The notes under the pieces: model-generated
What the model saw: the letters and a program-made list of their open reading frames with translations, nothing else
Databases searched by the model: none
What the model was told of the DNA's origin: nothing
Assembly (NCBI GenBank): GCA_041483895.1
Contig: JBGPGO010000008.1
Location: 1 to 64,000, forward strand
Source: Fimbriimonadia bacterium
GTDB taxonomy: Bacteria > Armatimonadota > Fimbriimonadia > Fimbriimonadales > JABRVX01
DNA length: 64,000 nt
Direction: 5' to 3'
Shown: in pieces, positions 4,191 to 8,778 of the stretch
How positions within the stretch are numbered: position 1 is the stretch's first letter
How the letters are laid out: the number at the start of each line of letters is the position of its first letter
Program-made: the position numbers and the translations under genes

Positions 4191-5684
4191 TTACCCGAAC
4201 CACTTTTTCAGCAGACCGGCAACTCCGCCGGGCTGGGAAGCGAGTCCTTCCACCAGTTCCTTATCCGAGCGCATCCAGCCCGGACGGAGCAGTTGGGCCG
4301 ACTCCTCGCCACCGGGTCCGGCGGTCCGCAGCAGCTCCTTCGATTGCGCCTCGGCAATGTCCGCATCCGTGGCGGCCCGGAGCAGGGAAGACATGTCTTT
4401 GATTGCGTTCAGGGTCTCCTCCGCGGAAATACGGATCAGATCGTCGTTGGAATGGATTGCCGAGCCGAGATAGTCCACGCAATCGAACTGATTGATTCCG
4501 TTGAGCCGTAGCACGGCGCGCGCCCGATCATAAGCCGTCTCCGATCCCGAGCGCAGCACCATATCCGCAATCGCATCAGGCCCGCCGATGGCCGTGATAA
4601 CCTCATACGCAAGGTCCCGGGTGTCCTGCTCGGGTGGGGCGTTCACGCACTCGGCAACAAGGCCCAGCGCATTCACCTGCCCACTGCGCGCCAAGGCCGC
4701 CACCGCCGCCATGCGGACGTTCGCGACCGGATCATTGAGGAGCGAGGACAGCGCGGTTGCCGCCTCGGCCGGTGCGCCTGGCGGAACCCCCTCAGCGACC
4801 CCAAGACGCACCACATCGCTCTCGTCATTCACCGCATGGGAAAGTGCGGCCACATACCCGGGCCGGTCGCATGCCAACAGTGCGTTGTAAGCGCCCAACC
4901 GAACCGCCGGCGCAGGATGGCCCAGTTTCGCATCGATGATCTGCCTTGCAGAACTGCCCCCGATCTTTCCCAGGGTCTCCAAGGCCTCGCGGGCAATACC
5001 GGGATCGGGGTCGTCCGTCATCGGGATGAGGCTTGCCGCTTCAATCGCATGGGCATGCTGCTTGACGGCCTGCAGCGCGGCAATCCGAATCTGTCTTGGA
5101 CCGGAGGCGGCCGCTTCCAGAAAGGCCGGCCAGATCGAATCCGGCGCTTCGAATTCAAACTCGGCGGCCCGTTGAAGCGCGAGTTCCCGATACGAGGGGT
5201 CCGACGCCGGGTCTCGCAGGATTTCCCCCAAAAGCTCCAGAGCTTCGCTTCCCTGGTATCGCAAGATGAGCCATGTTGCGGCAACTTTCCCCAGAGAGGC
5301 GCCATGCTGAAAGAGCTCCCGCATCTGACTTGGTCTCATCATGTGCGGTTCGTCGGGCAATCCCAGGGTCTTCACAATCGCCTGCACGACCTCCGGCCTG
5401 TCCGTCTTGCATAGCTCCAGCATGGGCCCGACGATTTGCGGGTCCGGGAAGTTGCGGAGCTCCTCGGCCGCCGCCAGCCGCACCTTCCAGCTCAAGTCGT
5501 TTAGCGCCTCGAGAAGCTGCTCGACCACAAAGGGACCGGCGAGCTGAGCGGCAATGCGTACGGCGGTTTCCCGCAATTTCCACGAACGGGACGACCACCC
5601 GGTGGGATAACTTCCGTGCGGACGCTTGACGGATGGCCCGTTTCCGGGGAATAGTTGTCGGGTATTGGAATCGAAGGACTCCAT
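4191..5684 (-). CDS. HEAT/PBS-lyase repeat protein (start uncertain)
   Basis: Repeated LxD...VRxAAxxAL motifs. Confidence 0.8.
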   Translation of the reverse strand: MESFDSNTRQLFPGNGPSVKRPHGSYPTGWSSRSWKLRETAVRIAAQLAGPFVVEQLLEALNDLSWKVRLAAAEELRNFPDPQIVGPMLELCKTDRPEVVQAIVKTLGLPDEPHMMRPSQMRELFQHGASLGKVAATWLILRYQGSEALELLGEILRDPASDPSYRELALQRAAEFEFEAPDSIWPAFLEAAASGPRQIRIAALQAVKQHAHAIEAASLIPMTDDPDPGIAREALETLGKIGGSSARQIIDAKLGHPAPAVRLGAYNALLACDRPGYVAALSHAVNDESDVVRLGVAEGVPPGAPAEAATALSSLLNDPVANVRMAAVAALARSGQVNALGLVAECVNAPPEQDTRDLAYEVITAIGGPDAIADMVLRSGSETAYDRARAVLRLNGINQFDCVDYLGSAIHSNDDLIRISAEETLNAIKDMSSLLRAATDADIAEAQSKELLRTAGPGGEESAQLLRPGWMRSDKELVEGLASQPGGVAGLLKKWFG

Positions 5685-7284
5685 CGCAGTTGATTTTGGC
5701 ACGACGAATACCATCGTTGCGCAGTGGACGGGCACGCGGGCGGAATGCGTCGAACTCGACAACATAACTGTTCATGAGCCTACTTGGGGCACGCCTCTGG
5801 TGCCCTCAGTCATCTATTTTAATGAGCCGGACCAGGTTGTCATCGGCTCCCGCGCCCTCAGCGCTATCGAGGCGGACCGGACGGTGGTTCTCGCGCCGGA
5901 ACGCGCTCCCTGGGCTCTAGCCGTCAAAAAGCAGCTTCTTTGGGATAGCTCGAAAGTGGTCTCCACCTGTGACCACAGAGCGATCACGGCCAGAGAAGCG
6001 GCATTGCTGTTCCTGACCGAGTTAATGCAGGAGTGCCTCAAGGAGGAGGCCCTGCGTGGCAAGCGGGGCTGCCTCGGCGGTTGGATGGTTCGCCACAACA
6101 GGCCCCACATCTCGCACCTCACGCTCACCACGCCGGTCGAATGCCACGAACCGTACCGGTTGGAGCTAGGTCGAATGGGGTCTCGCATCGGGGCTACCAA
6201 GGTGTCACTGCTGGATGAGCCGGTTGCCGCCGCACTTGGGTATGGCGTGGACCTGACCAACGAACAGGTCCTGATGGTGTTCGACTTTGGGGGCGGCACC
6301 ATTCAATCGGCCATCGTTCGGACGACGCCGGGAACCGGACATGAGCAGGTCGGTCGAAGATCGTCGATGCTTGCCACACGGGGCGAGATCGATTTCGGTG
6401 GCAGAACCGTCGATGGATGGCTCCAGGATATGCTACGGCCGCGCCTGCCTCGTGGCGCGGAGACGGAAGATTGGTTGCGACGCAATGCCGAGCTGATCAA
6501 AATCACTCTGTCCGCGGAAGATGCCCCACCCAGTATCCGATTCGCCGCCCCGTCGGGCGTGCAGATAGAGATCACGCGGGACGAGTTCCTGCACCTCTTG
6601 GAAGAAAAGGGAATGTACAAGACCATCGACTCGATGCTGAGCGATCTGTTCGACGACCTATACAAGCGCCACGGATTTGGCCCGGAGGGCATCCAGGCGG
6701 TTCTTCCCGTCGGCGGATCGACACTGCTTCCCAAAGTGCGGCGCAACCTGCTCGACATGTTCGGACCCAGCCGCGTTTGGTACGACAGCCCGTTCGATGC
6801 GGTGGCAAAGGGGGGCGCGATATTTGGGGCGGGGGCGGTTGTCGACCAGATCGTCCACCATGATTATGCGGTCCGGCTGTTCGACGACAAGAACAACCGG
6901 CCCGAATATGAGCTGCTGGTGCCCCGTGGAACCTCCTTCCCGACCGCCGGAGCCATCGCCACCCGATACTACAGCGTGGCGAAGGCGCAGCGCGAGTTCC
7001 GTCTCCCCATCTGCGAGGTTGGATATTCCGGCCGGCGTTCGGTGCCTTGGCGGGCGAGGGCGCAGGCCAACTATTGGAACCCGGATACCGAGCACGAACA
7101 GGAGGCGATTGTCTGCCTGAACGCCGGGGACGTGATCCGAATGGCCTCGCCTGGGACTGGAAACGAGGCAAGATTGCGTATTGAATTCTGGTTGGACGAG
7201 CAACGTCACCTCGTCGCTAGTATTTATGACCTATCTCGCAAGTCCTATATGAGAGAAAAAGAACGTGTCGTGCAACTGAGATAG
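5665..7284 (+). CDS. Atypical Hsp70/DnaK-family protein
   Basis: IAVDFGTTN, LDEPVAAALGYG, VFDFGGGT, VGGSTLLP; short non-canonical C-terminus; probable TTG start. Confidence 0.88.
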   Translation: MESKDSIAVDFGTTNTIVAQWTGTRAECVELDNITVHEPTWGTPLVPSVIYFNEPDQVVIGSRALSAIEADRTVVLAPERAPWALAVKKQLLWDSSKVVSTCDHRAITAREAALLFLTELMQECLKEEALRGKRGCLGGWMVRHNRPHISHLTLTTPVECHEPYRLELGRMGSRIGATKVSLLDEPVAAALGYGVDLTNEQVLMVFDFGGGTIQSAIVRTTPGTGHEQVGRRSSMLATRGEIDFGGRTVDGWLQDMLRPRLPRGAETEDWLRRNAELIKITLSAEDAPPSIRFAAPSGVQIEITRDEFLHLLEEKGMYKTIDSMLSDLFDDLYKRHGFGPEGIQAVLPVGGSTLLPKVRRNLLDMFGPSRVWYDSPFDAVAKGGAIFGAGAVVDQIVHHDYAVRLFDDKNNRPEYELLVPRGTSFPTAGAIATRYYSVAKAQREFRLPICEVGYSGRRSVPWRARAQANYWNPDTEHEQEAIVCLNAGDVIRMASPGTGNEARLRIEFWLDEQRHLVASIYDLSRKSYMREKERVVQLR

Positions 7285-7352
7285 GGATGCGGCGTAGTTG
7301 TGGAGGGCTCCGTTCCATCGGAGCCGTACTGAGAAGGGGAAACAATGAACGA

Positions 7353-8591
7353 ATGAGCAACAATCAAGCGTCTGCCCAAATCTTGCCGACGGTCGGCCTA
7401 GCCTGGATATCTCTCGTCGTTCTTGCCCTGGCGACCGGTGTGGTGCTGGAATTCAACTACGGCGCCGCCACGGCGTACAAAAGCGTCGAAGCGATTCAGT
7501 CCGTGAAATTTTGGGCCTGGTTCCGCGGCGTTCATCACTGGTGCTCCGCCGGCAGCATCATCGTCGGCTTTCTTTGGCTGGTGCAGGGGCTGTTTGAGGG
7601 GGCCTATCGTAAGCCCAATCAGCTTCGATGGATCGCGGCGGTCATGGGGCTTTTCATCGTCTATCTGTTCCAACTGACCGGGCACAGCCTTCCCTGGGAT
7701 CAGCGGGCGGTGCGCACAACCGCTATCGAGACCGGGATCGCGGCGGACGCGCCAGGATTCGGACCGGCCCAAGCCCGTTTCTTGCGCCAAGGCGATGAGG
7801 TGGGAGACCAGACCCTCGGCTTCTGGCACAAGGCGCACATTTGGTTCATCCCCGCCGCGCTGCTCGCGCTGGTCATTATCCCAATGGGGATCGCAAAACC
7901 GGGCGCAAAGGGCTCTTGGGGCCTCGCCATCATTTTGATCGTGACGATCATGGCCATATCAGGGGTGATGGGCGCGCCGACGTTGGACCTGACGCCGACG
8001 GCGAGCGACTTTGCGGGTGGGCCACAGCCGCCGGAATGGTATGTCTACCCGCTTCATGGGATGCTCCGGCTGTTTCAGGGGATGAGTCCGTCGGTCACCT
8101 TCGTCGGGACGATGGTGATCCCCGGTCTGGCGCTCGTCTGCCTGCTGCTGCTCCCTTGGCTGGATCGGTCGAGTTCGGGCGGATTGGGGAAGGCGCTCGC
8201 TGGGATCGGGGTTGTTGCCATTGCCTTGCTGTCCGTGATGGGTTACAATTCCGCGACCGCTGCACTCGCTACCGAGTCGGATCCACCGCCACCATCCAAG
8301 TTGTCCGTGAACCCGGAACTGATCGACAAGGGAAGGGCGCTGTTTGGCAAGGCAAATTGCAGTGCGTGTCATAAGTTGGCCGGCAAGGGCGGGATCGTCG
8401 GCCCGCCGCTGGACAACGAGGGCGGCAGGCACCCGGACCTGCAGTGGCAAATGGACCACCTTAAAGACCCCAAGAAGATGTCTCCCGGCTCCACCATGCC
8501 GTCGCAGTCGCAATACTCCAACGAGGACCTAACAGCGCTGGCCAACTACTTATTGTCCCTAAAGGGAATGCCGGCTTCCGGCCGGCATTAA
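7353..8591 (+). CDS. Cytochrome b/b6-like protein fused to a C-terminal class I cytochrome c
   Basis: RGVHHW, GHSLPWDQ, PEWY, several TM helices, CSACH and a distal Met in STMP. Confidence 0.88.
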   Translation: MSNNQASAQILPTVGLAWISLVVLALATGVVLEFNYGAATAYKSVEAIQSVKFWAWFRGVHHWCSAGSIIVGFLWLVQGLFEGAYRKPNQLRWIAAVMGLFIVYLFQLTGHSLPWDQRAVRTTAIETGIAADAPGFGPAQARFLRQGDEVGDQTLGFWHKAHIWFIPAALLALVIIPMGIAKPGAKGSWGLAIILIVTIMAISGVMGAPTLDLTPTASDFAGGPQPPEWYVYPLHGMLRLFQGMSPSVTFVGTMVIPGLALVCLLLLPWLDRSSSGGLGKALAGIGVVAIALLSVMGYNSATAALATESDPPPPSKLSVNPELIDKGRALFGKANCSACHKLAGKGGIVGPPLDNEGGRHPDLQWQMDHLKDPKKMSPGSTMPSQSQYSNEDLTALANYLLSLKGMPASGRH

Positions 8592-8752
8592 CCGGGGAAG
8601 CGCGTCGGACATATAGGACTTATAGGACCTATACGACCTATCTGTCCTATCCGGGATGGCAGCTCTCCCCGTAACGCTGGCTTCCAGCCGGCTTCCAGCA
8701 GATAGGTAGTATCGGACATATAGGACTTATGCGACCTATACGACCTATCGGG
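8563..8752. repeat. Mosaic REP-like element with tandem GGAC(A/C/T)TATA 9-mers
   Basis: Two blocks TCGGACATATAGGACTTAT..GACCTATACGACCTAT plus GTAACGCTGGCTTCCAGCCGGC (identical at 47261). Confidence 0.7.
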
Positions 8753-8778
8753 GATGGTATCATGCTCGAAACTGGGAG

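Follow-up and report, generated by a model that had tools for sequence, protein, structure and literature searches.

Complex III is regarded as having an inseparable core of cytochrome b and the Rieske protein, and it is an old and still open question how its Qo site makes two electrons take separate routes. In the cytochrome b of Rhodobacter, H97 and H198 bind heme bL, and H111 and H212 bind heme bH.

The closest described systems each share some features with the protein reported here; in this account, what is said of the cited papers refers to parts of their text. The PEWY-cytochrome c clade (Kao and Hunte 2014, PMC4122944) has the same build, a long cytochrome b that ends in a class I cytochrome c, but the clade of our protein is devoid of bH, has a relined quinol pocket and mostly lacks the Rieske gene. 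In the Pyrobaculum cytochrome b of the same survey, the helix-D bH ligand has been lost naturally and throughout the lineage. However, this protein is archaeal, and those parts of PMC4122944 report for it no fused cytochrome c, rebuilt pocket or Rieske loss. The survey dropped entries lacking any of the four His ligands, apart from six from Pyrobaculum, and this filter may explain why the present clade went unseen. Cyanobacterial subfamily K (Dibrova et al. 2017, PMC5600118), for which the function is given as unknown, has also lost a heme-binding His and the bn glycine. It differs in being a short four-helix protein, with the helix-2 His replaced by Glu or Gln and without the subunit IV part or a cytochrome c. 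The QiKO b6f complex of Chlamydomonas (petB-H202Q; PMC3112540) is bH-free and oxidises quinol without charge transfer, but it is engineered, retains the wild-type Qo site and the Rieske subunit, and has 5% activity. ActC of alternative complex III (ACIII; PMC5928083) resembles our protein in an outer-face quinol pocket with His and carboxylates, whereas its fold is unrelated, its acceptor is an FeS center and it is a proposed proton pump. Thus, cytochrome b-c fusions as such, the loss of a bH His in Pyrobaculum and subfamily K are already known. The present protein departs from the Rieske/cytochrome b complexes in its bH ligands, its Qo lining and its operon, yet it descends from them.

The protein (P0001) is encoded in the window, meaning the whole 64-kb stretch of DNA that was analysed. 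It belongs to a clade of 138 sequences, which we compare with 88 outside sequences that are near matches and no random sample. The gene and its domains are as follows.

7353..8591, forward strand: cytochrome b-cytochrome c fusion gene, 412 aa (open frame, Pfam, AlphaFold2)
7365..8261, forward strand: seven-helix cytochrome b domain, residues 5-303 (AlphaFold2, VIA)
8304..8564, forward strand: class I cytochrome c domain with Cys336, Cys339, His340 and Met382, each in 138/138 (Pfam, AlphaFold2, clade alignment)

In profile searches, the protein scored over the Pfam cut-offs for cytochrome b N, cytochrome b C and cytochrome c, and missed the NCBIfam cut-offs for ExtP, cytochrome b6 and QcrB (114/290, 108/325 and 53/500 bits, respectively). 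The AlphaFold2 model, built with 109 clade members, consists of seven long helices followed by the cytochrome c (mean pLDDT 91.9, pTM 0.88, all five models above 90 pLDDT). Foldseek assigned it the cytochrome b fold with helices A-G, and VIA superposed it on 7q21_B with a Z of 28.3 and an rmsd of 3.5 over 296 residues. The helix count predicts that the cytochrome c domain lies on the outer face. All 138 clade members carry a single CxxCH together with the Met ligand. By the medians, the N-terminal stretch is about 26 aa and the D-E region about 18 aa shorter than in the outside sequences. The CxGG motif of heme ci/cn was found in helix A of 0/138 clade members, and of 0/88 outside sequences too. 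The positions given in the first-pass annotation for His61 (7533), Trp75 (7575), His162 (7836) and Ile176/Pro177 (7878-7883) are all correct; the PEWY motif runs from 8031 and CSACH from 8358, and Met382 lies at 8496.

The tree comprised 226 distinct cytochrome b sequences, after removal of duplicates and of rows covering <80% of the 238 columns. Clade members were first marked by Glu126 and His235, and the tree then grouped exactly these 138 (FastTree support 0.968; UFBoot 100 in a 54-sequence subset). In both trees, which do not include the sequences of PMC4122944, the clade nests among fusion proteins with low deep support. The nearest outside sequences have the build of a long cytochrome b with a class I cytochrome c, and the nearest of all, P0145, combines Glu126 with both bH His. 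The frames are intact across the 138 sequences, with a mean identity of 30% among 109 members, and dN/dS was 0.05 and 0.18 in two pairs, a third pair being saturated at synonymous sites. All of the named members are Armatimonadota, except for one record labelled as an archaeon. That label ("uncultured archaeon", L017) is doubtful, since its neighbours are common to Armatimonadota loci. The distribution is patchy: 15/41 relatives gave no match at 1e-20, and two genomes of the same family hold normal cytochrome b copies only. We found no literature on this clade within openly readable papers. The string "Armatimon" occurs neither in the main text of PMC5600118 or PMC4122944 nor in the four text supplements of PMC5600118, the tree figure of which may not be fully readable as text. 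As far as searched, the clade is therefore undescribed. Its members are annotated, for example, as "ubiquinol-cytochrome c reductase cytochrome b subunit", and such names would read as a working complex III.

The heme sites of the cytochrome b domain, identified by alignment, are as follows. Rhodobacter numbers come from a gap-free mapping to the 2fyn chain via P0025, with an offset of +36 up to helix D.

7533..7535, forward strand: His61, heme bL ligand (Rhodobacter H97), 136/138
7575..7577, forward strand: Trp75 at the helix-B bH ligand position (H111), where His occurs in 35/138
7638..7640, forward strand: Ala96 at the helix-C glycine on the bH side, Gly in 16/138 as against 88/88 outside
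7836..7838, forward strand: His162, heme bL ligand (Rhodobacter H198), 136/138
7878..7883, forward strand: Ile176/Pro177 at the helix-D bH ligand position (H212), His in 0/138 at +13 to +17

Alignment to a solved cytochrome b6 bore out the first-pass assignment of these positions: in helices B and D, His61 and His162 fall on the first His, and Trp75 and Pro177 on the second, bH-binding His. The helix-D bH His is present in 0/138 clade members and in 82/88 outside sequences, and its absence from 138/138, as compared to 6/88, rules out chance. The claim that both bH ligands are lost holds for P0001 and for 103/138 members in all, but not for the 35/138 that retain the helix-B His, a residue found in 87/88 outside sequences. 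None of the 138 retains both bH His. The glycines that accompany the hemes, whose role in cytochrome b is described in PMC5600118, follow the same division. The two on the bH side remain in 36/138 and 16/138 clade members, as compared to 87/88 and 88/88 outside sequences, while the two on the bL side remain in 131/138 and 138/138. Alternative bH ligands were rejected as a family trait, as His, Met or Cys occupies both positions in 5/131 and two His never occur. The second His of the HHW motif is nothing special, being found in 45/74 outside sequences too. From the sequence, P0001 thus has one bis-His heme b site and one His/Met heme c site, with the bH site absent. In line with the earlier view that this is not random decay, the bH site was lost long ago, and this state is conserved and subject to purifying selection, as the two dN/dS values indicate.

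The quinol pocket, in contrast to the claim that the Qo side was kept, is relined with new polar residues, and the PEWY Glu occurs in just 43/138 members. The features of the pocket, again from the alignment, are as follows.

7671..7685, forward strand: Gln107 (134/138; 0/88 outside) and His111 at the Y147 position (His in 45, Asn in 89)
7704..7730, forward strand: one face of the cd1 helix, with Arg118, Arg121, Thr122 and Glu126
7824..7826, forward strand: Trp158 (F194 position), clade-specific, 136/138
8031..8057, forward strand: PEWY motif (Glu228, 43/138) and His235 at the Y302 position (138/138; 1/88 outside)

Accordingly, of the two motifs whose persistence among homologs was to be checked, PEWY and CxxCH, only CxxCH is present throughout (138/138). 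P0001 itself has PEWY, and carries His, Arg, Thr, Glu and His at Y147, W157, G158, I162 and Y302, respectively, of the canonical Qo lining. Arg118 occupies the M154 position, where 110/138 members have His; Arg121 the W157 position, where the Trp is replaced in 136/138; Thr122 the G158 position, Thr or Ser in 137/138; and Glu126 the I162 position, Glu in 138/138. The clade-specific residues are Ser65, Gln107, Thr122, Glu126, Trp158 and His235, while the WY of PEWY, Pro114 and the cd1/cd2 scaffold are conserved within the clade. A His is present at 111 (Y147) or 118 (M154) in 137/138 members. His111 is paired with Glu228 in 43/45, and of the 93 members without His111, 92 have His118. In the AlphaFold2 model, residues 118, 122 and 126 share one face of the cd1 helix, with 118 and 126 two turns apart. 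In bc1, Y302 forms a bond with the Rieske head next to the His that binds quinol, Y147 acts as a relay to E295, and a bulky residue at G158 prevents quinone from binding (PMC7908018). Judging from these bc1 positions, His235 and Glu126 would lie at the Rieske end of the pocket, and the second His at the heme end. A His plus a carboxylate is a common pattern in quinol sites (PMC5928083).

A Rieske profile run over six frames of the 64-kb window gave no match, as the first-pass annotation had noted. Its description of the gene as an orphan needs qualification: at 37 of 41 loci no Rieske gene was found (two of these 37 hold <400 bases upstream of the gene, and 12 about 1.5 kb), but at the other four (L056, L057, L058, L060) an intact Rieske gene abuts the start codon directly upstream. 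The proteins of these four loci lack both bH His, possess the new residues and retain the longer N-terminus. Their genomes are assigned to the phylum of the source genome rather than to its order. Within the clade these proteins branch off deepest (UFBoot 100), and their sister group is the Rieske-free branch with P0001 (99), although FastTree recovers the same split weakly (0.24). The Rieske gene was thus lost in a second step, after the loss of bH. Given that the His/Glu/Thr set arose with the Rieske gene still upstream, it did not begin as a Rieske replacement.

At the genome level, the source genome has three Rieske plus cytochrome b clusters, all on other contigs. The fusion gene is the sole PF00033 match in 15/19 member genomes. 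A Rieske-subunit profile gave no match in 5 of 20 member genomes and, in 2 more, only weak matches in long frames of 370-390 aa. Of these seven genomes, G269 has no PF00355 match and the other six have matches only in frames of about 360-390 aa; the seven are 97-99% complete, with G147 being one contig, and a very diverged Rieske subunit could escape the profile. Seven of 20 genomes therefore appear, from their sequences, to have the fusion gene without a bc-type Rieske subunit and without any other cytochrome b, which speaks against an obligate Rieske partner. The other 13/20, namely the source genome and 12 of the other 19, encode at least one Rieske subunit, so that action in trans is possible. 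In several genomes of the same order, a stand-alone, membrane-anchored Rieske type with a CTHLSC motif (L098-L104) lies away from any cytochrome b, and it is a candidate in trans partner where present.

An ACIII-type NrfD-family gene lies within about 7 kb of coxI in 19/20 genomes, implying that the fusion protein is not needed as the main complex III. The source genome has an ACIII-type operon with an oxidase, whose subunits were tentatively named by their motifs and sizes. No complex III is listed in the first Fimbriimonas genome paper, and menaquinones are reported for Fimbriimonas (PMC4072686).

On the best reading, P0001 is a one-chain descendant of a Rieske/cytochrome b complex that has lost the bH site and the neighbouring Rieske gene. 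For its function we tentatively favor, at a little short of even confidence, an accessory, non-electrogenic menaquinol:cytochrome c oxidoreductase that would work at the outer membrane face with no Q cycle. His235, aided by Glu126, would take the hydrogen bond and the first proton of the quinol, the task of the Rieske histidine in bc1. The second His (111 or 118) would hold the other end of the quinol, together with Glu228 where His111 is kept. The tethered cytochrome c may occupy the vacated Rieske dock and accept electrons singly, while heme bL would buffer one electron of the semiquinone. Proton release would occur on the outside only, no charge would cross the membrane, and the protein would provide a side route alongside ACIII. 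The absence of a Q cycle was part of the earlier proposal, and a Q cycle within one chain is indeed excluded if bH is absent. The electron route proposed there, from quinol through bL to the cytochrome c, is doubtful, as in b6f a distance of >30 A separates bL and cytochrome f (PMC3112540). Transfer straight out of the pocket to the docked cytochrome c seems likelier than transfer via bL. In the b6f complex without bh, semiquinone/bl exchange sustains 5% of wild-type turnover (PMC3112540).

The pTM of 0.88 and five models above 90 pLDDT fit a fixed place for the cytochrome c in the predicted structure. In a covariation analysis of 143 sequences, lineage signal prevailed and no contact between the domains could be trusted. 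The quinol-oxidase reading faces an energetic objection, since the transfer of a single electron from quinol to a cytochrome c runs uphill unless the semiquinone is stabilised. Thr or Ser at G158 in the clade, a position at which bulk blocks quinone in bc1, argues in the same direction, as do the in trans Rieske subunits in 13/20 genomes, the ACIII-type gene and the patchy spread.

An explanation that we regard as unlikely, but as deserving attention, is that the pocket no longer oxidises quinol. His235, Glu126, Thr122 and His111/118 would instead be ligands of a metal or of an additional heme, or hold a small polar substrate, making the protein an outer-face enzyme or redox sensor, or electrons would flow in reverse from the periplasm to quinone, as superoxide oxidase feeds periplasmic electrons into quinone. 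Two His, one or two Glu, Thr and Gln in place of a hydrophobic lining, Thr at G158 and the loss of the PEWY Glu in 95/138 all suit such a pocket, and ACIII fills the respiratory role in 19/20 genomes. However, the second His shifts between 111 and 118, as befits a hydrogen-bond partner better than a metal ligand, and 118 and 126, two helix turns apart, are too far from each other for one ion. Moreover, the WY of PEWY, Pro114 and the cd1/cd2 scaffold remain conserved, and no conserved co-transcribed partner gene accompanies the putative enzyme. A bc complex with a broken Q cycle that depends on a Rieske subunit encoded elsewhere, as in the QiKO b6f, is rather improbable for the clade at large. 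This reading draws on the four deepest-branch loci with their abutting Rieske gene, on the three Rieske subunits of the source genome and at least one in 13/20, and on the QiKO precedent (PMC3112540), but it must contend with the seven of 20 near-complete genomes that have the fusion gene without such a subunit. In addition, the docking surface has other residues at W157 and Y302, and the stand-alone Rieske genes elsewhere are of a separate type in a different setting. Probably, Rieske dependence is true of the deepest branch only.

Electron transfer between monomers is reportedly known in bc1, and the source genome encodes three normal cytochromes b. A mixed dimer, in which electrons would pass from the protein's own bL to the bL and bH of a normal partner, can thus be envisaged. 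The fusion protein is, however, the sole cytochrome b in 15/19 genomes and its N-terminal stretch is cut back, so that we consider this very improbable and disfavour it as a family-wide role. Finally, the patchy spread, including absence from two same-family genomes searched, and the long branches might point to a decaying relic or a mere membrane anchor for the cytochrome c. This we find hardly credible, in the face of intact frames in 138 sequences at about 30% identity, the dN/dS values of 0.05 and 0.18, and newly gained invariant residues within the membrane domain.

Returning to the reading as a quinol:cytochrome c oxidoreductase, its fuller form is a stepwise conversion, with gain of the Glu, then loss of bH with gain of the His, then loss of the Rieske gene, to a single-chain, two-heme quinol oxidase. 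The His-Glu pair would stand in for the Rieske His and the tethered cytochrome c for the 2Fe-2S cluster, leaving no iron-sulfur cluster and no bifurcation. We hold this scenario to be possible, with the balance of probability tilting against it. The clade and its relatives offer a natural experiment with intermediates: normal proteins, proteins without bH whose Rieske gene is still there, and proteins with a relined pocket that have neither bH nor a Rieske gene. Should the single chain indeed oxidise quinol, a few named residues would account for the change from a bifurcating to a linear site, within a protein of 45 kDa.

The searches also returned other unusual cytochromes b. Another family of cytochrome b-c fusions (P0183-P0188), about 428 aa long and separate from the present clade, may equal the Acidobacteriota-rich Atlas cluster. 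It has lost the bH His of helix D while retaining that of helix B, and PGAQF stands in place of PEWY; in the IQ-TREE tree its bH loss is independent. A single 585-aa sequence (P0052) with two cytochrome c domains lacks both bH His, keeps YWG and PEWY, and represents a third independent bH loss. Myxococcota-labelled cytochromes b (L020-L024, L115, L116) possess the full bH His pair, with Glu at I162 and with PLWP or PLWT instead of PEWY, and L116 has an upstream Rieske gene. In Armatimonadota genomes, a cytochrome b is fused to a domain with 17 CxxCH motifs (L051, L053, L054, P0171).

Around the fusion gene, 26 loci were compared and no conserved partner gene was found, the commonest neighbours lying on the opposite strand. 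These are a cyclase-domain protein and a carboxypeptidase-regulatory-like protein, and they look like local synteny. In 10 loci (among L061-L073), an adenylate/guanylate cyclase-domain membrane protein is transcribed divergently from the fusion gene. At the P0001 locus, promoter and terminator scans stayed at chance level. A HEAT-repeat gene and an Hsp70-like gene, not common to other family loci, lie upstream (window 4191-7284). A three-codon frame behind a purine-rich, ribosome-binding-like stretch (7345-7356) has a stop that overlaps the P0001 start codon, and its translational coupling to P0001 is possible. Downstream of the gene, window 8596-8758 contains two blocks of a repeat with a 9-base period, parts of which match 48 places in the genome, identifying it as a dispersed intergenic repeat.
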